A stretch of DNA of 62,628 nt, filler included. It is 3 parts of 3 records of this genome, joined end to end, with 100 filler letters (N's around TTAATTAATTAA, not from the genome) between each part and the next. Parts side by side here need not be neighbours in the genome. Positions count along the whole stretch, not along the records: positions 1 to 29,444 come from SRR22947727_489; 2 more parts are not named here. One strand, 5' to 3'. Within the stretch, counting starts at the first letter, position 1, and each line of letters opens with the position of its first letter. The translations under genes were made by a program, and so were the position numbers. Below, piece after piece: positions 4,977-56,167 of this stretch. Under the pieces are notes generated by a model. It saw nothing but the letters and a program-made list of their open reading frames with translations. It was not told the DNA's origin and did not search any database.

Positions 4977-6020
4977 ATGAGTACAAAATTTAATATCGCT
5001 ATCGCTGGTGCTACGGGTAACGTTGGAAGAGAGATCATTCAAATATTAGAAGATAAAGAATTTCCTGTTGATCATTTGTATTTGTTAGCATCTTCTCGAT
5101 CAAAAGGACAAGCAATTGAGTTTAGAGGGGAAGAATTAATAGTTGAAAATCTTGCTGAATTTGATTTCTCTAAAGTGCAAATAGGACTTTTTTCCCCTGG
5201 AGGTAAGGTATCTGCAGAATTTGCCCCTAAAGCGGCAAAAGCTGGGTGTCTTGTTATTGATAATAGCTCACATTTTAGAATGCATGACAATGTTCCTCTA
5301 ATAGTCCCTGAGGTAAATGCTTCTGCTTTAGAAGATTTTTTTAATAATAATGATCGTAGTAATATTATTGCCAATCCAAATTGCTCAACTATTCAAATGG
5401 TAGTTGCTCTCAAGCCACTGCATGACCAAGCAATAATTAATAGAGTAGTAGTTTCGACGTACCAGTCTGTCTCTGGGGCAGGCAAAGATGCGATGGATGA
5501 ATTATTTAACCAAACTCAACATATCTATACAAATAAAAATATTGAAAAAAATAAATTTACTAAACAAATGGCATTTAATGTTATTCCTCATATTGACACC
5601 TTTCTTGATAATGGAAGTACTAAAGAAGAAGAGAAAATGGTTAATGAAACAAAAAAAATATTGGATGAGGGAATTAAAGTATCTGCCACTTGTGTCCGAG
5701 TCCCTGTTTTTATCAGTCATGCTGAGTCTATTAATATTGAATTTGATTCTCCCTTAAGTGATGTTGACGCAACTAAATTATTAAAAAATTTTGAGGGTAT
5801 TTCAGTTATAGATTTTAGAAAAGATGAAGGTTATGTAACTCCCGTGGAAGCTGCTGGAGAAGATAAAGTATATGTTAGTAGAATTCGTGAAGATGATAGT
5901 GTTGATAATGGATTGAATATCTGGGTAGTGGCAGATAATTTACGAAAAGGTGCTGCTCTCAATGCAGTGCAAATTGCTGAATTAGTAACAAAACAATATT
6001 CGAATTTTTTAAATATTTAA
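4977..6020 (+). CDS. asd: aspartate-semialdehyde dehydrogenase
   Basis: GATGNVG, IANPNCST, STYQSVSGAG, CVRVPV, DNLRKGAALN; likely start MSTKF at 4977. Confidence 0.96.
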   Translation: MSTKFNIAIAGATGNVGREIIQILEDKEFPVDHLYLLASSRSKGQAIEFRGEELIVENLAEFDFSKVQIGLFSPGGKVSAEFAPKAAKAGCLVIDNSSHFRMHDNVPLIVPEVNASALEDFFNNNDRSNIIANPNCSTIQMVVALKPLHDQAIINRVVVSTYQSVSGAGKDAMDELFNQTQHIYTNKNIEKNKFTKQMAFNVIPHIDTFLDNGSTKEEEKMVNETKKILDEGIKVSATCVRVPVFISHAESINIEFDSPLSDVDATKLLKNFEGISVIDFRKDEGYVTPVEAAGEDKVYVSRIREDDSVDNGLNIWVVADNLRKGAALNAVQIAELVTKQYSNFLNI

Positions 6021-6445
6021 TTATCACTAATCAGTCTTTTCCCATAAATTTGGGAGTCCTGTATTTCATAGTTATTTGTTTTATAAAATGCCTTTACTTT
6101 AATATTAGTATTTCGCACAAATAAATTAATTTTTGGACAACCTAACTTGTAGAGTTTTTTTTCTATGATAGATAAAATAGAAGAACCAATTCCTTTTTTT
6201 TGTAGTTCTGGAAGAACTGCTAAATAATAAATATACCCTCGGTGACCATCGTATCCAGCCATGGCTGTAGCAATGATTTTTTTATTAATTTCTCCAATGA
6301 TAAACAGATTATCTTTAATAGACAATTTTCGTTTAATATCTTTCAATGGATCATTCCATTCAACAACAAGTTTACACGTTTCCCATAATTTAACAACAGC
6401 CTCTGTGTCAGTTTTTTTAAATTTTCTATATGTAGGAATACTCAT
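6017..6445 (-). CDS. GNAT family acetyltransferase (YpeA-like)
   Basis: AGYDGHRG, YYLAV, QKKGIG, GCPKINL motifs. Start MSIPT at 6445; the ORF-track extension runs into the tRNA. Confidence 0.85.
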   Translation of the reverse strand: MSIPTYRKFKKTDTEAVVKLWETCKLVVEWNDPLKDIKRKLSIKDNLFIIGEINKKIIATAMAGYDGHRGYIYYLAVLPELQKKGIGSSILSIIEKKLYKLGCPKINLFVRNTNIKVKAFYKTNNYEIQDSQIYGKRLISDN

Positions 6446-6455
6446 AATTTTTCTT

Positions 6456-6530
6456 TGGCGGTCTCGTAGGGATTCGAACCCCAAATCCATGTTCCGAAGA
6501 CACGTGTGATATCCATTTCACCACGAGACC
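6456..6530 (-). tRNA. tRNA-Arg (anticodon UCG)
   Basis: Minus strand GGTCTCG-TG-GTGA AATGGATA TCAC-A-CGTGT CTTCGGA ACATG-GATT-TGGGG TTCGAAT CCCTA-CGAGACC-G-CCA. Complete cloverleaf with encoded CCA and A20. Confidence 0.92.
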
Positions 6531-6587
6531 ATAACTGTTTTTTATGCTAAAAGTTGAAAAGATTAAAGGATAGTTTAATAAAAAAGA

Positions 6588-7859
6588 ATGAGTTCTAACT
6601 TTAGGCCAAAAAATTATCAACCACTAGAGGTTTCAACTATAAAAAATTTTATTGAAAACAGTGATAAAATTAAAAATATTATTGGTGACACAAAAGAAAT
6701 AGAAATCAAAGAAGTTGGAGATGGAAATTTAAATTTAGTTTTTTTTGTTGAGTCTAAAAAAAATTCAATTTGTATTAAGCAACCACTGCCCTATCTCAGA
6801 GTGCTTAAAGATTGGCCTCTAACTTTAAAAAGATCATATTATGAATCTGAATATATGAATATTCACTCAAATCATGTTGCAGATTTGATGCCTAAAATTT
6901 ATGATTTTGATCCCGAGTTGTGCACGATAACAATGGAGAAATTATCCCCACATATAATAATGCGACATGGATTAATTAACGCAACAAAATATGAAAAATT
7001 TGCTGAAGATATTTCAACTTTTATGTCCAAAACATTATTTTTTACCTCAGATTTATATTTAAAAGCTGATCAAAAAAAAGAATTAAATTCGAGGTTCATC
7101 ATGAATACAGAGCTTTGTAAAATTACAGAAGATTTAATTTTTACTGATCCATATATGTATAATAAAAATAATAGATGGACCACACCTCATCTTGATAAAC
7201 AAAAAAAAGAAATAGAAAATAACGATGATCTTAAAATTGCAGTAAGTAGATTAAAAATAAAATTTATGAGTGAAAGCCAATCTTTACTTCATGGCGATCT
7301 TCATACTGGCTCAATAATGGTTTCGGAAAATGATACTAAAGTAATAGATCCAGAATTTGCTTTTTATGGACCCATGGGTTTTGATATAGGAGCTTTATTA
7401 GCAAATTTATTAATGAACTTTTTTTCTCAAAATGGTCATGAAAATAATTTTGGTGAAAGAAAAGAATTTAAAAAATGGATTTTAAATTTAATTAATATGA
7501 TTTGGATAAAATTTGAAAACAAATTTTGCAATTTGTGGAATGACTATCCAGAAGGAGATGCTTATCCTACACAATTATTTAATAATAAACAAATTATTAA
7601 AAGGGAACAAAAAAATTATTTACAAAATATTTACAATGACTCGATTGGCTTTGCAGGAGCTAAAATAATTAGACGAATTTTTGGCTTTGCTCACAACATA
7701 GATTTTGATTGGATTAAAGATGATAAAATAAGAGCAATTTGTGAAAATAAATGTGCTAATCTTGGGATAGATATGCAAGTAAATCCCTCTAAATTTAGAG
7801 ATATCTCAAGTTTAATTGAGGCAGCTATTAAATTGGATAATGAAAGTATTAGCTTTTAG
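6588..7859 (+). CDS. mtnK: 5-methylthioribose / 5-deoxyribose kinase
   Basis: EVGDGNLNLVF, KQ, HGDLHTGSI, DPEFAFYGPMGFDIG, IIRRIFGFAH motifs. Confidence 0.93.
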   Translation: MSSNFRPKNYQPLEVSTIKNFIENSDKIKNIIGDTKEIEIKEVGDGNLNLVFFVESKKNSICIKQPLPYLRVLKDWPLTLKRSYYESEYMNIHSNHVADLMPKIYDFDPELCTITMEKLSPHIIMRHGLINATKYEKFAEDISTFMSKTLFFTSDLYLKADQKKELNSRFIMNTELCKITEDLIFTDPYMYNKNNRWTTPHLDKQKKEIENNDDLKIAVSRLKIKFMSESQSLLHGDLHTGSIMVSENDTKVIDPEFAFYGPMGFDIGALLANLLMNFFSQNGHENNFGERKEFKKWILNLINMIWIKFENKFCNLWNDYPEGDAYPTQLFNNKQIIKREQKNYLQNIYNDSIGFAGAKIIRRIFGFAHNIDFDWIKDDKIRAICENKCANLGIDMQVNPSKFRDISSLIEAAIKLDNESISF

Positions 7860-8803
7860 TTCTTATTAAATCTTTCTAGTTTAAAAATAAAATCTTTTAT
7901 AATTTCATCTCTATTTAACATAGAAACTATTTTGATTGAATGCCTACGGTGATCAACACTCCACGTCATATTATCTGATAATATTGGTGATGGAATTATA
8001 TTAGTTGGTGTCCACTCTTCATTTATTAACCATGCAACTGCAGCCATATCCCATAGTTCTTTTGACCACCCTTTGTGATCATCACTGTACTCTTTAAAAC
8101 GCATTGCTAAAAATTTTCCAATTTCACCGTGCGGTTCAATATACTTTTCTACTTCAGGTACAGTGGTTGTTAAGTGTGTAGTGACACCCGCGCATGGAAC
8201 CATTACTAGAGGAACTCCGCAATCAAAAAGTATTTGAGCTCCGCCTACATCTTGTTTTAAATTAAAATCATATGAGTGAGGCCAATACAGTGCATTTCCT
8301 CCTAACCAAATAACTACTACTTTTTCTTTTATAGAGGGATCTTTTACTAAAGCTGATGCAACATTACTAATAGCTCCAATCGCAATCACGTATAAAGGAT
8401 TGTCCGCAGAACCTTCGTGAGCTTTTTTAATCAAATCGTCTACAGCAGGAGCTTCAACAACTTTCTTAGCTGAGCCTACATATTCTTTAACACCTTTAAA
8501 AACGAAATTTTCATGAGAAACATTTATTCTTTCTAAAAGTCTTAATATTTCATCATAGCTTAACTCCATTCCTTTTTCAGGATTGTCGGCTCTTTCATTC
8601 ATAGAGAACGGTGCAGCATAAATACCTTCAACCTTAATTCTTTCATGTGATAGCATCATCTGCACTAAAGCAAACTGATCATCTATTTCATTGTAAGTAT
8701 CTGTATCTAAAACAGCACGCACAATCCCTTTTCTAGGTTGTAATAAATTTAATATTTTTGTATCATCTTTTGATACATGAAAACCTTTTTCAAAATAAGC
8801 CAT
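7856..8803 (-). CDS. nucleoside hydrolase (IU-NH / Rih family)
   Basis: DTDTYNEIDD Ca2+-binding motif, AIGAISNVA, WLGG, FNL, LWD. Confidence 0.88.
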   Translation of the reverse strand: MAYFEKGFHVSKDDTKILNLLQPRKGIVRAVLDTDTYNEIDDQFALVQMMLSHERIKVEGIYAAPFSMNERADNPEKGMELSYDEILRLLERINVSHENFVFKGVKEYVGSAKKVVEAPAVDDLIKKAHEGSADNPLYVIAIGAISNVASALVKDPSIKEKVVVIWLGGNALYWPHSYDFNLKQDVGGAQILFDCGVPLVMVPCAGVTTHLTTTVPEVEKYIEPHGEIGKFLAMRFKEYSDDHKGWSKELWDMAAVAWLINEEWTPTNIIPSPILSDNMTWSVDHRRHSIKIVSMLNRDEIIKDFIFKLERFNKN

Positions 8804-8985
8804 ATAAATTAGTTATATATTTTTTTTAAGTTGTAAAATAATATTATTAATAAAAATTAATTATAACATTAAAATTATAAATATCACATTAAATATAAAT
8901 TTAGTTAATATTTACTTATAATTTTATTGATTAATAAAAGTCAATATGCAAGAAGTCTCTTAATTTAATTAAATTAGGAGGAAAA

Positions 8986-10254
8986 ATGATTAAAAGAATA
9001 TTTTCTTTTTTTAGTGTCTTCTTACTATTTACAAGTATTTCTTTTTCTGCAAAATCAGCAGAGAAGATTGCGTTAGTAATTGGAACTTGGGCAGAAGGCC
9101 CGTTAACACCATATGTTGAAAAATTTACAGCAGATACAGGAATTGAAGTCGATATACAAACTTTTCCATTTAGAGATCTTCTTGCAACCTTAGAAGTAAG
9201 AGGAAATGCAAAAGCTGATGATATTGACGTAGTTTTTGTTGATGCTCCATTAGTACCTTCATACGCTGTCAGAGGTATGATTGCACCTATGGACTCATAT
9301 TTTTCAGATGCAAATTTAAATGAAATTTTTGCTCCAGCAGGTATTGCAGCAGCTTCATGGAATGGTGAAATGTATGCGCCGCCGCTGAATAACTCAGGAC
9401 AGATATTGTACTACAACAAAGATCTTCTTGCAAAAGCAGGTTGTGCTGAACCATCTGCAATTGAGTCTGAAAGAATTACTTGGGAACAGGTTGTTGATTG
9501 TGCTCAAAAAATTAATGATGAAGGAAGTGGTACTTGGGGTATGATTTTTGATCAAATCAGTAGATACTACCAACTTCAAGCTTTACCTGAATCTTTAGGT
9601 GGTGGATCTGGAGTTTGTGAAGGTGGATTATCAGTTAAAGGTTGTCTTACAAACGATGGATGGATGAAAGCTGCTCAATGGTATTATGATATTCATAACA
9701 CATGGAATGTTTCTCCTAAAGGAGCTAACCCTGACCAAACTCATGAAATGTTTGGTGCTGGCAAAATTGGAATTTTTGTTGGAGGTTCATGGAATGTTGG
9801 AAGATGGAAAGATTCTGATTTAAATTTTGGTTTAGCGTTGCATCCTTATTTTGAGGGTGGTGATGTTGTAACAGGTTGTAATAGTTGGCATATGGGAGTT
9901 TGGAATTATTCTAAACAAAAAGATGCCTCAGCTTTACTTGTGAGATATCTAACTGCAAGTCCAGATGTTGCTCTAGCTTATGTTGATGAGCATAATTCAT
10001 TACCTGCACATATGTCAGGTATATTGCATGTTGCAGAAGATCCAAAGTTTAACAATTTTCCAGATACAGCTATGAAATTAGCAACTTATGAGTCTGCAAA
10101 TCATTGTGCAACGAGAGGTAGAACACCTGGTTTCCTAGAATTTGAAGAAATTGTAAATACAAGCTTTGAAGACATCAGAAATGGTGGTGATCCTGCTTCA
10201 GTTATGCAGTCTGCAGAGACAAGAATTGAACAATCAATGAGACGTTATAAGTAA
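8986..10254 (+). CDS. carbohydrate-type (CUT1) ABC transporter substrate-binding protein
   Basis: Signal peptide, FTADTGIEV, LYYNKDLL, F..GKIGIFVGGSW; strong SD AGGAGG upstream. Confidence 0.9.
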   Translation: MIKRIFSFFSVFLLFTSISFSAKSAEKIALVIGTWAEGPLTPYVEKFTADTGIEVDIQTFPFRDLLATLEVRGNAKADDIDVVFVDAPLVPSYAVRGMIAPMDSYFSDANLNEIFAPAGIAAASWNGEMYAPPLNNSGQILYYNKDLLAKAGCAEPSAIESERITWEQVVDCAQKINDEGSGTWGMIFDQISRYYQLQALPESLGGGSGVCEGGLSVKGCLTNDGWMKAAQWYYDIHNTWNVSPKGANPDQTHEMFGAGKIGIFVGGSWNVGRWKDSDLNFGLALHPYFEGGDVVTGCNSWHMGVWNYSKQKDASALLVRYLTASPDVALAYVDEHNSLPAHMSGILHVAEDPKFNNFPDTAMKLATYESANHCATRGRTPGFLEFEEIVNTSFEDIRNGGDPASVMQSAETRIEQSMRRYK

Positions 10255-10274
10255 TCATTTTAACTTATAATTTA

Positions 10275-10304
10275 TTACTACGCAGAGTATACTCTGCGTA
10301 GTAA
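10275..10304 (+). terminator. perfect 30-bp palindrome followed by a T-run (intra-operon terminator/mRNA stabiliser)
   Basis: TTACTACGCAGAGTA|TACTCTGCGTAGTAA followed by ATTTTTTTT, between the SBP and the first permease. Confidence 0.75.
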
Positions 10305-10328
10305 ATTTTTTTTGATTTATACAAATTT

Positions 10329-11225
10329 ATGTTTAACAATTTTTTTAAAAGACAATGGATAGTTCCTTATCTATTTTTAGCTCCTGCATTATTAGCAACC
10401 ATAGCTTTTAAACTTTATCCAATCTTCATCGGTTTTTGGGAAAGCTTAATTTATACTAGCTTTGGTGGAGGTGTGGAAAAAAGATCATTTGTGTGGTTTG
10501 AGAATTATCAATATCTTTTTAGTGATCCATTATTTTGGCAGTCTTTAAAAATTACATCTATTTTAACAATATTTATCAATCCTTTTCAGATTGCTCTGTC
10601 TTTGGGTTTAGCTCTTTTGTTAATGCGCAAATCAAAATTCATAAGAGTTATAAGATCTTTGTATTTGCTTCCAATAGGTGTTGCATTGCCAATAGCGACG
10701 GTAGTTTGGGGCTTAATGCTTGATCCTTATCAAGGACTAGCAAATGGTTTTATTGGACTCTTTGGAATACCGCCCCAACCTTTTTTAGTGAGTGAACATC
10801 AAGCCTTGTGGTCTATTATAGCTATAGCTACATGGAAAGGTGTTGCTTTTTGGATGCTTTTCTTACTTGCAGGTATGGAAGAAATCCCTACACAATATTA
10901 TGAAGCTGCAAAAATTGATGGAGCAAGGCCATTTGAAAAATTTAGATTTATAACTTTGCCTTTATTAAAAAGAACAATACTTTTTGTTTTTGTGGCAGAT
11001 ACCGCTACAAACTTTGTGTTGATGGTTCCCATGATTATTTTAACAAAGGGAGGTCCAATGCAGTCAACAAATGTACTAGCTTTTGAGGCTTATCGTAGTG
11101 GTTTTTATTATCAGGATTGGGGTAGATCATTATCAATTATAAGTATTTTGACAATTATTTCTCTAGTTGTAATCGGACTTCAGTTATTGTTCTTGGGTGA
11201 TAATAAAGAGGATCGAGTTAAATAA
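10329..11225 (+). CDS. CUT1 ABC transporter permease (MalF/UgpA-like)
   Basis: PYLFLAP, ENY..LF.DP.FW, EAA loop YEAAKIDGA...FRFITLP. Confidence 0.92.
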   Translation: MFNNFFKRQWIVPYLFLAPALLATIAFKLYPIFIGFWESLIYTSFGGGVEKRSFVWFENYQYLFSDPLFWQSLKITSILTIFINPFQIALSLGLALLLMRKSKFIRVIRSLYLLPIGVALPIATVVWGLMLDPYQGLANGFIGLFGIPPQPFLVSEHQALWSIIAIATWKGVAFWMLFLLAGMEEIPTQYYEAAKIDGARPFEKFRFITLPLLKRTILFVFVADTATNFVLMVPMIILTKGGPMQSTNVLAFEAYRSGFYYQDWGRSLSIISILTIISLVVIGLQLLFLGDNKEDRVK

Positions 11226-12064
11226 TGTTTAAACATATTAATAAAAATTGGCCAATTTATGCCTGGTACTTTGTTATTGTTATAGGTTTAATTATTACAA
11301 TAGCTCCTTTTTGGTGGGCTTTATCTAGTTCATTTAAAGATAATGTTACAATTTTTTCTGAGGTTGCTCCTTTTTCTTTTTGGTCAATGGTGCCTGGCAC
11401 TTCGTTGGACCCATATTATGGTATTTTTCAAAAAGGATTTGGTAGAGCAATGGCTAATACACTCTTTGTTTCTGTTGTATCAGTTATAGGAGGTATAATT
11501 ATAAATTCTATGGCAGGTTTTGCTTTCGCACAGTTTAGATTTAAGGGAGATAATATTATGTTCGGATTTATTTTATTATCATTTGCAGTGCCAGCAGATG
11601 CTATTGCAATTCCATTATTTAAAATGATGAGACAGATTGGCTGGTTTGATACCTATTATGCTTTAATAATTCCAATGCTTGCTAATGGCATAATAATTTT
11701 CTTATTTAGACAATTTTTCATTGGTATTCCTAAAGAATTAATGGAGGCAGCAAGGGTAGATGGTCTATCGTGGTTTGGTGTTTATTGGAAAATATGTATG
11801 CCTTTATCAAAACCAGTAACGTTAGGTGCGGGTCTGTTACTCTTTGTTTTTCAATGGGAGTCTTTTTTGTGGCCGTTAATTGCAGCCCCTTCTCCAGATC
11901 TTCATTTAATTCAAGTGGTGTTAGCAAGATTCTCAACTGAATATGCCCCTATATGGAATCAACAATTTGCTGCATCTACTATTGCAGGTCTGTTACCACT
12001 TATATTTATTTATCTTTTTCAAAAACAGTTTGTAAGCGCTCTAACTGGTGTCGAACAAAAATAA
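11225..12064 (+). CDS. CUT1 ABC transporter permease (MalG/UgpE-like)
   Basis: RQFF..IPKELMEAARVDG, WESFLWP, FQKQFV. Confidence 0.92.
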   Translation: MFKHINKNWPIYAWYFVIVIGLIITIAPFWWALSSSFKDNVTIFSEVAPFSFWSMVPGTSLDPYYGIFQKGFGRAMANTLFVSVVSVIGGIIINSMAGFAFAQFRFKGDNIMFGFILLSFAVPADAIAIPLFKMMRQIGWFDTYYALIIPMLANGIIIFLFRQFFIGIPKELMEAARVDGLSWFGVYWKICMPLSKPVTLGAGLLLFVFQWESFLWPLIAAPSPDLHLIQVVLARFSTEYAPIWNQQFAASTIAGLLPLIFIYLFQKQFVSALTGVEQK

Positions 12065-13146
12065 TGCTTGTTAACGATACTAACCTTACAACAATTTGGG
12101 TAGATGAAAATAATCAGAAAATAAAAATTATTGATCAAAGACTTCTTCCTCATGAGCTAAGTATAGTAACATTAAACTCAGTTAAGGATGTTGAATTTGC
12201 TATTAGAGAAATGCAGGTTAGAGGAGCTCCTTTAATAGGTGTTACTGCTGCTTTTGGAATGTATGTTGCTGCTTTAGAAGATTCTTCAATGGAGTTTCTT
12301 AATCAAGCTGCAGATTTTTTAATAAAATCAAGACCAACAGCAGTTAATTTAAGTTGGGCAATAGAAAAAATTAAATTAGAAATTTCTAATATAGATCAAG
12401 CAAATAGAGCAGATAGTATTTTTAATTTAGCTAAAAAAATTAGAGAAGATGATATTGAGGCGTGTAGTAAGATAGGTGAATATGGCCTTGAATTAATAAA
12501 AAATATTTATAGTAAAACAAACTCAACAGTAAATATCCTAACTCATTGTAATGCAGGTTGGTTAGCTGCTGTTGATTGGGGTACAGCTTTAGCACCAATA
12601 TTTAAAGCTAAAAAAAATAATATACCTATTCATGTGTGGGTTGATGAGACTCGACCTAGAAATCAGGGTTTTAATTTAACTGCTTGGGAACTAATTAATG
12701 AGAATATTGATTGCTCTCTAATTGTTGATAATGTCGGTGGTCATTTAATGCAACATAATCAAGTTGATATGTGTATCGTTGGGACAGACAGAACAACCTT
12801 AAGTGGCGATGTTTGTAATAAAATAGGTACTTATTTGAAAGCTCTTGCAGCTTTTGATAATAATATTCCTTTTTATGTATCCGCACCAATTTCAAGTATA
12901 GATTTTAACATTCGAGATGGTATTTCTGAAATTCAAATTGAGACAAGAGATCCCAAAGAAGTAAGTAGTATTTGGGGAGTCGATGAAAATAAAAATATGA
13001 AAACAATAAGTATCGTTCCAGAAAATTCAAAATCAGTAAACTATGCTTTTGATGTTACACCATCTAAATATATCTCTAAACTTATTACTGAAAAGGGAGT
13101 AGTTGACGCAAATGAAATATCAATTAAGGGTTTAAAAGATAAATGA
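12064..13146 (+). CDS. mtnA: methylthioribose-1-phosphate / 5-deoxyribose-1-phosphate isomerase
   Basis: DQRLLP, VRGAPLIG, RPTAVNL, THCNAG, DETRP, NKIGT, AFDVTP; ATG at 12064 overlaps the permease stop (TAATG). Confidence 0.95.
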   Translation: MLVNDTNLTTIWVDENNQKIKIIDQRLLPHELSIVTLNSVKDVEFAIREMQVRGAPLIGVTAAFGMYVAALEDSSMEFLNQAADFLIKSRPTAVNLSWAIEKIKLEISNIDQANRADSIFNLAKKIREDDIEACSKIGEYGLELIKNIYSKTNSTVNILTHCNAGWLAAVDWGTALAPIFKAKKNNIPIHVWVDETRPRNQGFNLTAWELINENIDCSLIVDNVGGHLMQHNQVDMCIVGTDRTTLSGDVCNKIGTYLKALAAFDNNIPFYVSAPISSIDFNIRDGISEIQIETRDPKEVSSIWGVDENKNMKTISIVPENSKSVNYAFDVTPSKYISKLITEKGVVDANEISIKGLKDK

Positions 13147-15152
13147 AAAGTTTATGGAATAATAAAATCGCCTTACAATATGTTAGTGAGTATAAGAAGA
13201 AAAATATTAGTAAAGATTTAGCTCTAAGAATTTATACAACACATTTATTAGGAAAAAATCCAAAACTCGTTTTGCATGGAGGGGGTAATTCTTCAGTAAA
13301 ATCTATAGGTAAAAACTTATATAAAAAAAATGTAAATCTCATTTATGTTAAAGGCAGTGGTTGGGATATGTCAAATTTAAACGAGCTTGGTATGCCTGGC
13401 TTAGAACTTAACCCACTTCTAGAAACTGTAAAATTAAATAAATTAAATGATAATGACATGGTTAACTTATTGCGATCTAATTTAATAAATGCCAACTCAC
13501 CTAATCCTTCCGTTGAAACTCTTTTACACGCTTACTTACCATTTAAGTTTGTAGACCATACTCATTCAAATGCTTTTTTAAGCATTTTAAATCAACCAAA
13601 TTCTCAAGCTTTAATTAAAAAAATTTTTGGAAACAAAGTTGGCATTGTACCCTATATTATGCCTGGCTTTTCTTTAGCAAAAGAATGTTTAAAGATTTTT
13701 AAAAAAGATGAAAAAGTTCAGGGTTTGGCGTTAATTAATCATGGTATTTTTACGTTCGGAGATAGTGCAAAACAAAGCTATGAAAGAATGATCAATTTCG
13801 TTTCTGATGTAGAAAATTATATATCTAAAAATAAAGTTAAACTCAAAACACATACTAATAAATCAAAAATTAATATGTCAGATTTCATGCTGTCTGTTAG
13901 GAAAAGTTTTTCAACTTATTCAAATCATAAATGGATTTTAAAATTTCATAACAATAATGATGATCAAGTTATAGCTTCTACTCAAAACTTAAATAATCTT
14001 ATAAATAAAGGTCCTGTAACTCCAGATCATGTTATTAGAATTAAGTCTAAAATTTTATTTATTTCAAAAAATAAATTTCACAAAATTGATGAGGAAATAA
14101 AAAAATATTGCCAATCTTATAAAAAATATTATTTAAAAAATAAAACTTTTGTTCATAATTGTACAATTACAGACCCACTTCCAAGAATTATAATTTTAGA
14201 AGGAATTGGAATTCTGTCTTTAGGAAAAAAACTGAAAGATCAAAAAATTTCTTATGATATCTTTAGGTCAATGGCATCTTCTGTATTTGATGCTGAAAGA
14301 ATAGGAAAGTTTAAGTCAATAATAGAGAAAGATATTTTTAAGATGGAGTATTGGCCTTTGGAGAGAGCTAAATTAGATAATGCAAAAGTACAATCATTAG
14401 ATGGTAACAATGTTATTATAACTGGTGGTGGTGGCACAATAGGAATGGCAATTGCAAAAAAGTTTAAAAAAGAAGGGGCTAATATAATTCTTATAGATAA
14501 AAAATATGATAAGCATCTTTTAGAAAAAAATAATCTGCATGATTGTTTCTTAATCAATACTGACCTTACTAATAATCAAAAATTAAAAAAAATAGTTGAG
14601 AAAATAGTACTAAACTTTGGAGGTATAGATATATTAATATCTAATGCTGGCAGAGCATTTCAAGGTGCTATTGAAACTGTTGATTCTAAAATAATTAAAA
14701 AAAGTTACGACATTAATTTTTTATCTCACCAAAATATTTCACAATTGACTGTTCAGGTCATGAAAAAACAAAATACCGGAGGTTTAATTTTATATAATTT
14801 ATCTAAGCAGGCTATTAATCCTGGAAAAAACTTTGGTCCTTATGGACTCGCCAAATCAACTACTCTCTTTTTAATGAAACAATACGCACTTGAGTGTGGA
14901 GAATATAATATACGTGTTAACGGCATTAATGCTGATAGAATTGAAAGTGGACTTCTAACAAAAGAATTGATTAATCAACGCGCAACTTCCAGAGGATTAA
15001 GTAAAGAAAAATACTTATCTAATAATCTCCTTAATATTCAAGTATTAGCAGATGATGTTGCTGAAGCATTTTATGCACAAACATTATTGAAAAAAACAAC
15101 AGCTAATATTATTACAGTAGATGGTGGAAATATTGAGGCTAGCCTTAGATAG
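13143..15152 (+). CDS. bifunctional class II aldolase / short-chain dehydrogenase (RhaD-SDR-like fusion)
   Basis: N-terminal: LVLHGGGNSSVK, VKGSG, PSVETLLH, HTH, NHG, TPDH. C-terminal SDR: TGGGGTIG, NAG, YGLAK, IRVNGINAD, VDGG. Confidence 0.9.
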   Translation: MKSLWNNKIALQYVSEYKKKNISKDLALRIYTTHLLGKNPKLVLHGGGNSSVKSIGKNLYKKNVNLIYVKGSGWDMSNLNELGMPGLELNPLLETVKLNKLNDNDMVNLLRSNLINANSPNPSVETLLHAYLPFKFVDHTHSNAFLSILNQPNSQALIKKIFGNKVGIVPYIMPGFSLAKECLKIFKKDEKVQGLALINHGIFTFGDSAKQSYERMINFVSDVENYISKNKVKLKTHTNKSKINMSDFMLSVRKSFSTYSNHKWILKFHNNNDDQVIASTQNLNNLINKGPVTPDHVIRIKSKILFISKNKFHKIDEEIKKYCQSYKKYYLKNKTFVHNCTITDPLPRIIILEGIGILSLGKKLKDQKISYDIFRSMASSVFDAERIGKFKSIIEKDIFKMEYWPLERAKLDNAKVQSLDGNNVIITGGGGTIGMAIAKKFKKEGANIILIDKKYDKHLLEKNNLHDCFLINTDLTNNQKLKKIVEKIVLNFGGIDILISNAGRAFQGAIETVDSKIIKKSYDINFLSHQNISQLTVQVMKKQNTGGLILYNLSKQAINPGKNFGPYGLAKSTTLFLMKQYALECGEYNIRVNGINADRIESGLLTKELINQRATSRGLSKEKYLSNNLLNIQVLADDVAEAFYAQTLLKKTTANIITVDGGNIEASLR

Positions 15153-15713
15153 CTACCAGGAACTATTTGGCTGTTTTAAAAACTCTTCTTCTTCAAATGT
15201 TGATTTTCTATTCAAAATAATATTTCTATGAGGGTATCTTCCAAATTTTTTTATTGCCACTGAATGGTCATTCCATGCATTTTTAACTTTATCATAATGT
15301 TCAAATGATTTTAAATAAGTATCAATAAGTTTGTGACCAAAAACATGATCACTTATATCTTCACTATGAATAAGTGGCATTAAGAGAAAATGTATTTTAT
15401 GTTGATCTAACTCTTCAAGATATCCTCGATCAACGGCTTCATTGACAATTAACCTGGTTTTATAATCTTGTGCAAAAGAATCCGGGGTATTTCTAAAAAG
15501 ATTTCTAGAAAATTGATCTAAAAGTACTACCAAAGATACACACTCTTCTGCAGTATCCTGCCATTCATCATATTCATTATTGATTGCTTTTTTTAGATCT
15601 GTAAAAAATAAATTTTTAATCTTCTGATCATATAGATCATCTTTTTTAAACCAATCTTCCATTGTGGATTGAATAAACCAGAAATCTAAAATTGCTTTTG
15701 CTCTTTCATTCAT
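15153..15713 (-). CDS. DUF924 family protein
   Basis: ILDFWF, LLDQFSRNLFR, MPLIHSE, FGRYPHRN.ILNR.ST.EE. Confidence 0.88.
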   Translation of the reverse strand: MNERAKAILDFWFIQSTMEDWFKKDDLYDQKIKNLFFTDLKKAINNEYDEWQDTAEECVSLVVLLDQFSRNLFRNTPDSFAQDYKTRLIVNEAVDRGYLEELDQHKIHFLLMPLIHSEDISDHVFGHKLIDTYLKSFEHYDKVKNAWNDHSVAIKKFGRYPHRNIILNRKSTFEEEEFLKQPNSSW

Positions 15714-15744
15714 ATCACACCTATAATATAGAAGACGGATCCTC

Positions 15745-16422
15745 ATGACATTAATTAAATTAAATAATAAAATAATTAAGTGTCGTCAGTGTAATCGTTT
15801 AGTTAACTTTAGAGAAAAAATTGCCACTGAGAAACGACGTCAATACATAGACCAAACTTATTGGGGTAAACCAATTACAGGTTATGGTGATATTGATTCG
15901 CAATTACTCATGATAGGATTGGCTCCCGCAGCACATGGTGGGAATAGGACAGGTAGGGTATTTACGGGAGATAAGTCGGCTGATTTTCTTTTCAAATGTC
16001 TTCATAAAGCAGGTTTTGCAAATCAAAGTATTTCAATATCTAGAGATGATGGTTTGGAACTTAATAATCTTTATTTAACAACTGCCTTAAAATGTGTTCC
16101 GCCTGAAGATAAACCTAAGCCTAATGAATTAAAAACCTGTTTTAATTTTTTTAGAGAAGAAATAAATTATCTAGTAAAAATAAATACTATTGTTGCTTTA
16201 GGAAAAATTGCTTTTGATGCATGTTTGAATTTTTATATGCAAGATTATGATCTTAAGAGAAAAGATTTTGTATTTCAGCATGGAACAGAATATATGCTTC
16301 CCGATGATAAAATATTAATCGGTTCTTATCATCCTAGTCCTAGGAATGTAAATACTGGTAGAATAGATGAAAACAAAATGGGTAGATTACTAAAAAAAGT
16401 TAAGAAAGTTATGGATCGATAA
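15745..16422 (+). CDS. uracil-DNA glycosylase family 5 (UdgB-type)
   Basis: CRQC and further Cys (Fe-S ligands), GLAPAAHGGNRTGR.FTGD, YHPSPRN. Confidence 0.9.
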   Translation: MTLIKLNNKIIKCRQCNRLVNFREKIATEKRRQYIDQTYWGKPITGYGDIDSQLLMIGLAPAAHGGNRTGRVFTGDKSADFLFKCLHKAGFANQSISISRDDGLELNNLYLTTALKCVPPEDKPKPNELKTCFNFFREEINYLVKINTIVALGKIAFDACLNFYMQDYDLKRKDFVFQHGTEYMLPDDKILIGSYHPSPRNVNTGRIDENKMGRLLKKVKKVMDR

Positions 16423-16625
16423 TGCCTATTAGAAGAAAATCCAGTATGGAAAAAAAATATTATGAAACCATTGGTCAGGGACTTTTATTTGGCCATGATA
16501 ATCTTCGTTTTAAAACAGTGAATCTTCCACAAAAACAACGTCTTACAAACCTCTGTAAAAAGTTTAGTATAAAATTAATTACTCAATCAAAACCAGTTTT
16601 TTTAAGGGTAATAAATTTATTGTAA
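16422..16625 (+). CDS. small hypothetical protein (67 aa)
   Basis: Fills the gap exactly: start overlaps the UDG stop (TAATG) and its stop abuts the MFS ATG. Confidence 0.55.
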   Translation: MPIRRKSSMEKKYYETIGQGLLFGHDNLRFKTVNLPQKQRLTNLCKKFSIKLITQSKPVFLRVINLL

Positions 16626-29444: not shown

Positions 29445-29544
29445 NNNNNNNNNNNNNNNNNNNNNNNNNNNNNNNNNNNNNNNNNNNNTTAATTAATTAA
29501 NNNNNNNNNNNNNNNNNNNNNNNNNNNNNNNNNNNNNNNNNNNN
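29445..29544. other. artificial contig-joining spacer
   Basis: 44 N + TTAATTAATTAA (stops in all six frames) + 44 N; gene context and lineage change across it. Confidence 0.97.
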
Positions 29545-56067: not shown

Positions 56068-56167
56068 NNNNNNNNNNNNNNNNNNNNNNNNNNNNNNNNN
56101 NNNNNNNNNNNTTAATTAATTAANNNNNNNNNNNNNNNNNNNNNNNNNNNNNNNNNNNNNNNNNNNN
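56068..56167. other. artificial contig-joining spacer
   Basis: 44 N + TTAATTAATTAA + 44 N; sharp GC increase downstream. Confidence 0.97.

Follow-up and report, generated by a model that had tools for sequence, protein, structure and literature searches.

A candidate importer-fed variant of the dihydroxyacetone phosphate shunt, with an aldolase-SDR fusion, in a HIMB59-like alphaproteobacterium

We analysed a DNA stretch of 62,628 nucleotides (the window), composed of three unrelated pieces joined by runs of N (29445-29544 and 56068-56167), and focused on a block of seven genes at positions 6588-15152 of the first piece. The block encodes a methylthioribose/5-deoxyribose 1-kinase (mtnK), a nucleoside hydrolase of the IU-NH family, a solute-binding protein (SBP) and two permeases of a CUT1-type ATP-binding cassette (ABC) importer, an isomerase for methylthioribose/5-deoxyribose-1-phosphate (mtnA) and a class II aldolase fused to a short-chain dehydrogenase/reductase (SDR). 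We read it, with a probability of about 0.7, as an importer-fed variant of the dihydroxyacetone phosphate (DHAP) shunt, a route for 5-deoxyribose and methylthioribose, and call it a variant because the aldolase is a 669-aa fusion and not a stand-alone Ald2 or DrdA. We call the host HIMB59-like on the strength of related records (47-57% identity) whose titles name HIMB59 or MarineAlpha5, and of the AT-rich, alphaproteobacterial context.

In the proposed route, the SBP and the two permeases, together with a MalK/UgpC-type ATPase whose gene lies outside the block, would import 5'-modified purine nucleosides: methylthioadenosine (MTA), 5'-deoxyadenosine or their deaminated forms, and possibly the free sugars too. 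A cytoplasmic hydrolase, clear in family and putative in specificity, would free the base and methylthioribose or 5-deoxyribose. MtnK would phosphorylate C1, which is the sole option when C5 lacks a hydroxyl, and MtnA would yield the ribulose-1-phosphate form, both enzymes belonging to families in which these reactions are established for homologues. The aldolase domain of the fusion may cleave this product to DHAP and acetaldehyde or 2-(methylthio)acetaldehyde, and the SDR domain may convert the aldehyde with NAD(H) in either direction, as suggested by RhaEW and by the gene context. The gain would be the base and a three-carbon unit, and the same enzymes would dispose of 5'-deoxyadenosine from the cell's own radical S-adenosylmethionine (SAM) enzymes. 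MtnK, MtnA and aldolase chemistry is established in homologues (PMC6079011, PMC10986504).

An open reading frame (ORF) scan found all seven ORFs intact and open. mtnK (6588..7859, plus strand, 423 aa) scored 485.5 bits against TIGR01767 (cut-off 275), and its product aligned full-length to the solved kinases 2olc (E 6.9e-72) and 2pyw (E 1.4e-114). The hydrolase gene (7856..8803, minus strand, 315 aa; PF01156, E 3.8e-20) converges on mtnK with a 4-base overlap and diverges from the SBP gene, so the block comprises at least three transcription units. On the plus strand there follow the SBP gene (8986..10254, 422 aa with a hydrophobic N-terminus; PF13416/PF01547, SBP_bac_1/8), permease 1 (10329..11225, 298 aa; PF00528, BPD_transp_1, with UgpA as the best NCBIfam match, under cut-off), permease 2 (11225..12064, 279 aa; PF00528), mtnA (12064..13146, 360 aa; TIGR00512 403.3, cut-off 279; NF004326 441.6, cut-off 271) and the fusion gene (13143..15152, 669 aa; NF006192 782.6, cut-off 639). 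Overlapping codons join the last four genes, with TAATG at either end of permease 2 and ATGA between mtnA and the fusion. The original prediction had listed this gene set in one ~8.6-kb block and translational coupling of permease 2, mtnA and the aldolase, both of which were confirmed by the ORFs, the family models and the overlaps; it had also stated that mtnB/C/D/E are missing from the contig, and by eye none stood in the ORF list of the first piece. Left unmentioned until now were the minus-strand position of the hydrolase gene and the lack of an ABC ATPase gene inside the block. For the hydrolase, which had been called Rih-type, the RihA, RihB and RihC models scored far under cut-off.

The fusion joins PF00596 (E 7e-16) to PF00106, belongs to the NF006192 subfamily in place of the FucA-like single-domain type of Ald2 and DrdA, and scored 388.7 against the RhaEW model TIGR02632, under its cut-off of 567.75. 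Its predicted structure had a pLDDT of 90.5, and a fold search matched the aldolase domain to 3m4r. The class II aldolase site is conserved (His139, His141 and His200, with Glu125 as catalytic residue), as are the phosphate-binding GGGN loop and SDR residues Tyr567, Lys571 and a Ser. The catalytic residue is Glu76 in DrdA (PMC6079011) and Asp in RhaE (PMC3870299); the window fusion thus has the residue found in DrdA, and Asp occurs in the fusions of L091 and L100, which lie beside an FGGY kinase gene. A fusion tree was built using FastTree with 82 of 115 rows kept, near-identical HIMB59 rows being left out. Glu-type sister fusions (47-52% identity; L092, L096, L099; L028, L101, L183) are found either within a PfkB/TIM-barrel/GFO cluster or next to UgpC and a gene resembling glycerol-1-phosphate dehydrogenase.

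Among the 401 alphaproteobacterial genomes sampled, 67 carried a close fusion (E no higher than 1e-150), and mtnA was present in 63 of these 67 versus 123 of the 334 others. Fusion and mtnA lay within 5 kb of each other in 25 of the 56 fusion genomes with listed coordinates, and mtnA or mtnP stood within the 1.5-kb flank at 14 of the 30 best fusion loci. Forty fusion-bearing and 40 fusion-less mtnA genomes were compared (13 of the 80 without coordinates): among the matches listed, with 177 weaker ones outside that list, a stand-alone class II aldolase lay at most 1 kb from mtnA in 23 of 32 fusion-less genomes versus 0 of 35 fusion-bearing ones. By this mutual exclusion the fusion appears to fill the Ald2 slot, the role first proposed for it, and the link is strong for this subfamily and not for the whole family. 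The same 40-to-40 contrast was uninformative for acireductone dioxygenase (ARD, MtnD), found in 2 fusion-bearing and 6 fusion-less genomes.

The hydrolase carries the IU-NH fingerprint, with an aspartate spacing one residue longer than canonical, and the Ca2+ aspartates D33, D35, D41, D42 and D252 showed no variation across 22 aligned rows. RihA holds the ribose 5'-OH through Asn158 and Glu164 (PMC2898832), and on 5'-deoxy substrates the turnover of characterised hydrolases is poor or very slow (PMC8910321). Alignment with RihA 3g5i placed Asp179 of the window hydrolase at Glu164 and a Tyr at Asn158, so that the 5'-OH-binding pair is absent. Among 80 hydrolase matches in the collected loci (6 too short to score, many rows repeating a genome), Asp occupied the Glu164 site in 35 of 35 rows with an mtn neighbour, while the 39 rows without one had Glu in 35, Asp in 1 (a short HIMB59 contig), Ser in 1 and Cys in 2. 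In 28 of 28 HIMB59 genomes without mtnK, where the hydrolase occupies the corresponding slot alone, the residue was likewise Glu, and the best 120 hydrolase homologues included 107 with Glu and 10 with Asp. A single clade of Asp-bearing rows was rejected by the approximately unbiased (AU) test (p-AU 0.029, for a group chosen after the first tree was seen, which weighs against the result), and therefore two or more changes seem to have occurred at the site, in step with mtnK linkage. The 5' specificity of the hydrolase is thus probably altered, in keeping with the earlier proposal that it feeds a 5'-deoxy route. An atlas search with the hydrolase returned generic nucleoside-hydrolase clusters only. 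Two relatives (L155:111-2210 and L156:5737-7836) lie within an open frame of ~700 codons and are possibly fusions, and Glu-type relatives on rhizobial plasmids (L248, L249) follow a betaine/choline-type ABC transporter, not a CUT1 one.

Hydropathy shows a hydrophobic leader on the SBP but none on the hydrolase; intact nucleosides are therefore likely to be imported and cleaved inside. The predicted SBP structure (pLDDT 94) matched CUT1 sugar-binding proteins at 17-24% identity, and sequence and fold searches for the ligand gave distant CUT1 sugar binders only, which was uninformative. SBP relatives were collected from 80 metagenome loci, and the 58 outside the HIMB59-like group had a nucleoside hydrolase in 41, MalK in 16, ribokinase in 6 and an mtn gene in 5 (a script count that amounts to about three distinct sets); the SBP family thus appears riboside-linked in general. 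A distant contig (L152:3229-12960, the same as L153; GC 65%) carries RpiR-mtnA-mtnK-hydrolase-SBP-permease-permease-fusion on a single strand, with proteins 29-44% identical to those of the window, a hydrolase of a different subfamily and an NF006196 fusion. Reduced versions of this set occur in L181 and L166-L168, L166 having an mtnA fragment. A cluster with a 60%-identical SBP (L106:7809-11966) includes a hydrolase, MalK and an ADP-ribosylglycohydrolase gene, which hints at ADP-ribose-derived ribosides there. Plasmid searches gave 11 hydrolase and 3 SBP matches, and none of the three regions inspected had mtn genes.

The family of G003 was surveyed in 116 genomes, which are incomplete, so that absences are soft. 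mtnK was over cut-off in 11, the SBP occurred in 13 and mtnA in 42. All 11 mtnK genomes had mtnK, hydrolase and SBP together in one slot between asd/tRNA-Arg and DUF924 (in G002 split over two contig ends), and in all 11 mtnA was directly followed by the fusion, within the block in 4 and behind mtnP at an inositol-gene locus in 7. Across 31 fusion loci, mtnA was directly upstream in 27 and an MTA phosphorylase-like gene preceded mtnA in 23. Counted by genome, the fusion adjoined mtnA in 32 of the 42 mtnA genomes. The full block recurs in L003, L004 and L021 at 63-84% identity, with L002 carrying it from the SBP onward, and a single contig from run X15 extends unbroken over 5500-16500 with 116 differing letters; the block is therefore neither a chance arrangement nor a mis-assembly. 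Co-occurrence elsewhere, on which the original prediction had staked itself, was thus found in relatives and again, built from other subfamilies, in L152. In L116 (5585-6000) the last 140 codons of the fusion, broken near residue 628, stand between permease 2 and DUF924 with no mtnA, and this remnant appears to have been left when part of a full block was deleted. The nearest genome, G001, gave a single 53-base match, lacks the block and probably belongs with another piece of the window.

The metabolic setting was judged from five relatives. ARD was found in 0 of the 42 mtnA genomes of the family, and MtnC and a RuBisCO-like protein each in 0 of the 5 relatives (incomplete genomes), so that, judged from relatives, the canonical methionine salvage set (MtnB, MtnC/MtnW-X, MtnD) appears to be lacking. 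The fusion is the sole class II aldolase in 4 of 5. A true ribokinase is encoded in 5 of 5, and purine and thymidine phosphorylases are present; plain ribose would thus need no MtnK, and a C1 kinase fits sugars without a 5-hydroxyl best. A MalK/UgpC ATPase over cut-off is encoded elsewhere in the genome in 5 of 5, and 4-5 radical SAM genes were found in 4 of 5. Spermidine synthase was found in 0 of 5, which suggests that MTA would be mainly external while radical SAM enzymes supply internal 5'-deoxyadenosine. No MtnN/Pfs nucleosidase lies in the block. In the four full-block genomes no mtnP was seen, and a 176-aa Pfs-like gene under NCBIfam cut-offs lies at the inositol locus (L037:1438-1968, also L039-L041), after iolB and a class II aldolase gene, where sisters have mtnP-mtnA-fusion. 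At most HIMB59 inositol loci a conserved 138-aa ORF (L016:12014-12430) follows mtnA or the fusion, with no NCBIfam match at 1e-10. G012 (L078, L079) has two mtnP-mtnA loci, one with the fusion and one without, and may be a mixed assembly.

Several observations weigh against an importer-fed DHAP shunt. Kin are non-independent in all of the co-occurrence counts. In 10 of the 42 HIMB59 mtnA genomes no fusion adjoins mtnA; 7 of these carry a long ORF with an aldolase domain at another place, and in the remaining 3, which are incomplete genomes, no fusion was seen. Sister fusions (L028, L092, L096, L099, L101; 47-52% identity) belong to clusters for other sugars. In the class of G001, taken as Gammaproteobacteria (unconfirmed), distant fusions occurred in 44 of 301 genomes, and an mtn gene lay at most 1.5 kb away in 0 of 30 distant-fusion loci, where mtnA elsewhere in the genome was not searched. 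RhaW oxidises an alpha-hydroxy aldehyde (PMC3870299), and acetaldehyde is a different substrate. Outside HIMB59, members of the SBP family have hydrolases (41 of 58) and ribokinase (6) as neighbours much more than mtnA, and the closest relatives there (~60% identity) have no mtn neighbour. As for the hydrolase site, a Glu-to-Asp change is conservative, the rows are redundant and come down to two or three independent changes, and in a distant hydrolase subfamily Asp is common and marks a clade (43 of 139 representatives).

The alternative that survives best, although unlikely, gives the block two jobs: mtnK, mtnA and the fusion would clear SAM by-products made by the cell itself, with the Pfs-like protein or MtnP acting from elsewhere, while the SBP, permeases and hydrolase would take up ordinary ribosides for ribokinase. 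The mtn-free surroundings of most SBP relatives outside HIMB59 agree with this, as do the radical SAM genes of 4 of 5 relatives, the 176-aa Pfs-like gene of the four full-block genomes and the lack of a transporter at most HIMB59 mtnP-mtnA-fusion loci. Against such a division, mtnK was always accompanied by the hydrolase and SBP (11 of 11), also in the 7 genomes where internal MTA would need no MtnK because MtnP is present. Moreover, permease 2 and mtnA are coupled in translation, the state of the hydrolase residue follows mtnK, and in L152 an equivalent set is assembled from other subfamilies.

We consider it quite improbable that the block handles ordinary nucleosides, with ribose converted by MtnK to ribose-1-phosphate, by MtnA to ribulose-1-phosphate and by the fusion to DHAP and glycolaldehyde, which the SDR would oxidise to glycolate. 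Glycolaldehyde does resemble the RhaW substrate lactaldehyde (PMC3870299), the HIMB59 clade is predicted to use glycolate (PMC10308909), and haloarchaea are reported to have an aldolase route from nucleosides to glycolaldehyde (PMC9700705). However, no activity of DrdK on ribose could be detected (PMC6079011), ribokinase is encoded in 5 of 5 relatives and purine and thymidine phosphorylases are present, the fusion follows MTA phosphorylase-mtnA in 23 loci, and the 5'-OH-binding Glu is changed, not kept. Comparably improbable is that the route is right and the main import is another 5'-substituted riboside, such as S-ribosylhomocysteine/S-adenosylhomocysteine or algal arseno-ribosides. Genomes with MtnP still keep the hydrolase and MtnK, suggesting substrates that MtnP refuses, and the Asp change says merely that the 5' group differs; against this, MtnK and MtnA pass curated cut-offs for methylthioribose enzymes, and the neighbourhood bears no sign of arsenic or homocysteine handling. 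Very improbable is that the fusion is a rhamnose-type RhaEW, or that it serves canonical methionine salvage as a dehydratase like MtnB. It shares the two-domain layout of RhaEW, some databases give relatives the name 'rhamnose utilization protein RhaD', and MtnB has the class II aldolase fold; against these readings stand the missed TIGR02632 cut-off, Glu instead of Asp, the lack of rhamnose genes nearby, the separate existence of Asp-type fusions on a long branch (L091, L100) and the lack of ARD in the family's mtnA genomes.

The importer-fed DHAP shunt proposed here has several known counterparts. The shunt of E. coli ATCC 25922 (Pfs, MtnK, MtnA and Ald2, together with a presumed permease; PMC10986504, PMC12632272) has the same kinase and isomerase families and an operon with a transporter gene, and uses external MTA and 5'-deoxyadenosine as carbon source, as is proposed here; the window has the 669-aa fusion for Ald2, an IU-NH hydrolase for Pfs and a CUT1 ABC importer as transporter. 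The DrdK-DrdI-DrdA disposal of 5-deoxyribose (PMC6079011) follows the same kinase-isomerase-class II aldolase logic with a catalytic Glu, and sugar transporter genes in four Drd clusters led its authors to suggest salvage of external 5-deoxyribose; DrdA, in contrast, is a FucA-like single domain, and the accessible parts of that article describe neither a hydrolase nor an SDR. Sister HIMB59 loci share the order mtnP-mtnA-fusion with the MtnP-MtnA-Ald2 shunt of R. rubrum and R. palustris (PMC5893883, PMC13474568), in which Ald2 stands alone and sulfur is recovered downstream by MAR or, aerobically, by an enzyme called unknown, steps for which we identified no counterpart here. RhaEW (YuxG; PMC3870299) shares the class II aldolase and SDR layout, the DHAP-releasing cleavage of a ketose-1-phosphate and NAD chemistry on the aldehyde, whereas the window fusion is ~30% identical to Asp-type fusions and has no rha locus. 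With IU-NH/Rih hydrolases (PMC2898832, PMC8910321) the window hydrolase shares the fold family, the Ca-binding aspartates and an Asn next to the catalytic water; it differs in being ~20-26% identical to canonical members and in its 5'-OH site.

Published work thus already covers the pathway logic, clusters with a transporter and growth on 5'-deoxynucleosides from outside; the fusion and IU-NH in this role appear to be new. That an importer turns the route into scavenging, as first proposed, is supported by our reading, but the idea itself is already published (PMC6079011, PMC10986504, PMC12632272). No publication tying the NF006192 fusion, IU-NH or this CUT1 family to the DHAP shunt was found in a search that mostly left subscription papers outside, and the accessible main texts on HIMB59, including PMC10308909, make no mention of methylthio, methionine or nucleoside. 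A 2026 review (PMC13474568) describes two characterised shunt variants and calls the aldehyde-reducing enzyme unknown. If our reading is true, the fused SDR is a candidate for that aldehyde-converting step, a function is assigned to a widespread aldolase-SDR family (the close copies in 67 of 401 alphaproteobacterial genomes), and a nucleoside hydrolase with changed 5' specificity is predicted. Prochlorococcus excretes MTA, more so under phosphate limitation (PMC11698098), and HIMB59 block-carriers would be a possible consumer, adding a link to marine purine cross-feeding.

A broader version of the reading is tentative and, in our judgement, rather doubtful. In it, HIMB59 cells without sulfite reductase would harvest carbon, adenine and reduced sulfur from phytoplankton MTA, with the IU-NH hydrolase re-specified for 5'-deoxy and 5'-methylthio nucleosides as a non-homologous stand-in for Pfs, the SBP as a dedicated 5'-deoxynucleoside receptor, the fused SDR acting on 2-(methylthio)acetaldehyde, and methanethiol passing to MetY. 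The sulfite reductase domain PF01077 was found in 0 of 5 relatives and MetY over cut-off in 4 of 5, which, with the lack of spermidine synthase, favours it. R. palustris aerobically releases methanethiol from this route by enzymes that the source calls unknown (PMC5893883). Sulfur recovery, which the original prediction had held out as a possible gain, is possible and needs a C-S cleaving step, for which no gene was found.

A terminator-like hairpin 3' of the SBP gene (10275..10304, plus strand) has a 13-pair stem and a T run, a consensus match only, and the 2 such hairpins found versus 3.8 expected from shuffles show no excess; a promoter scan gave 51 sites versus 51.8 expected. Contigs of three RNA runs covered 27-29 of 30 bins, some bridging gene junctions, with summed depth peaking over the SBP gene, and since such contigs can neither rank genes nor prove transcription, no inference was drawn from them. 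The sole Rfam match was a tRNA-Arg(TCG) (6456..6530, minus strand), which borders the variable slot between asd and DUF924; in 9 of 9 related loci scanned it occupied this place, whether or not the block was there. Judged by eye, the window's middle piece looks gammaproteobacterial and the last cyanobacterial, the GC content of the last piece being ~55% versus ~32%. A GNAT acetyltransferase gene (6017-6445, minus strand; NF002959 over cut-off) lies between asd and the tRNA-Arg and is limited at this slot to the window's lineage, other lineages having nothing there or a 260-aa membrane protein.

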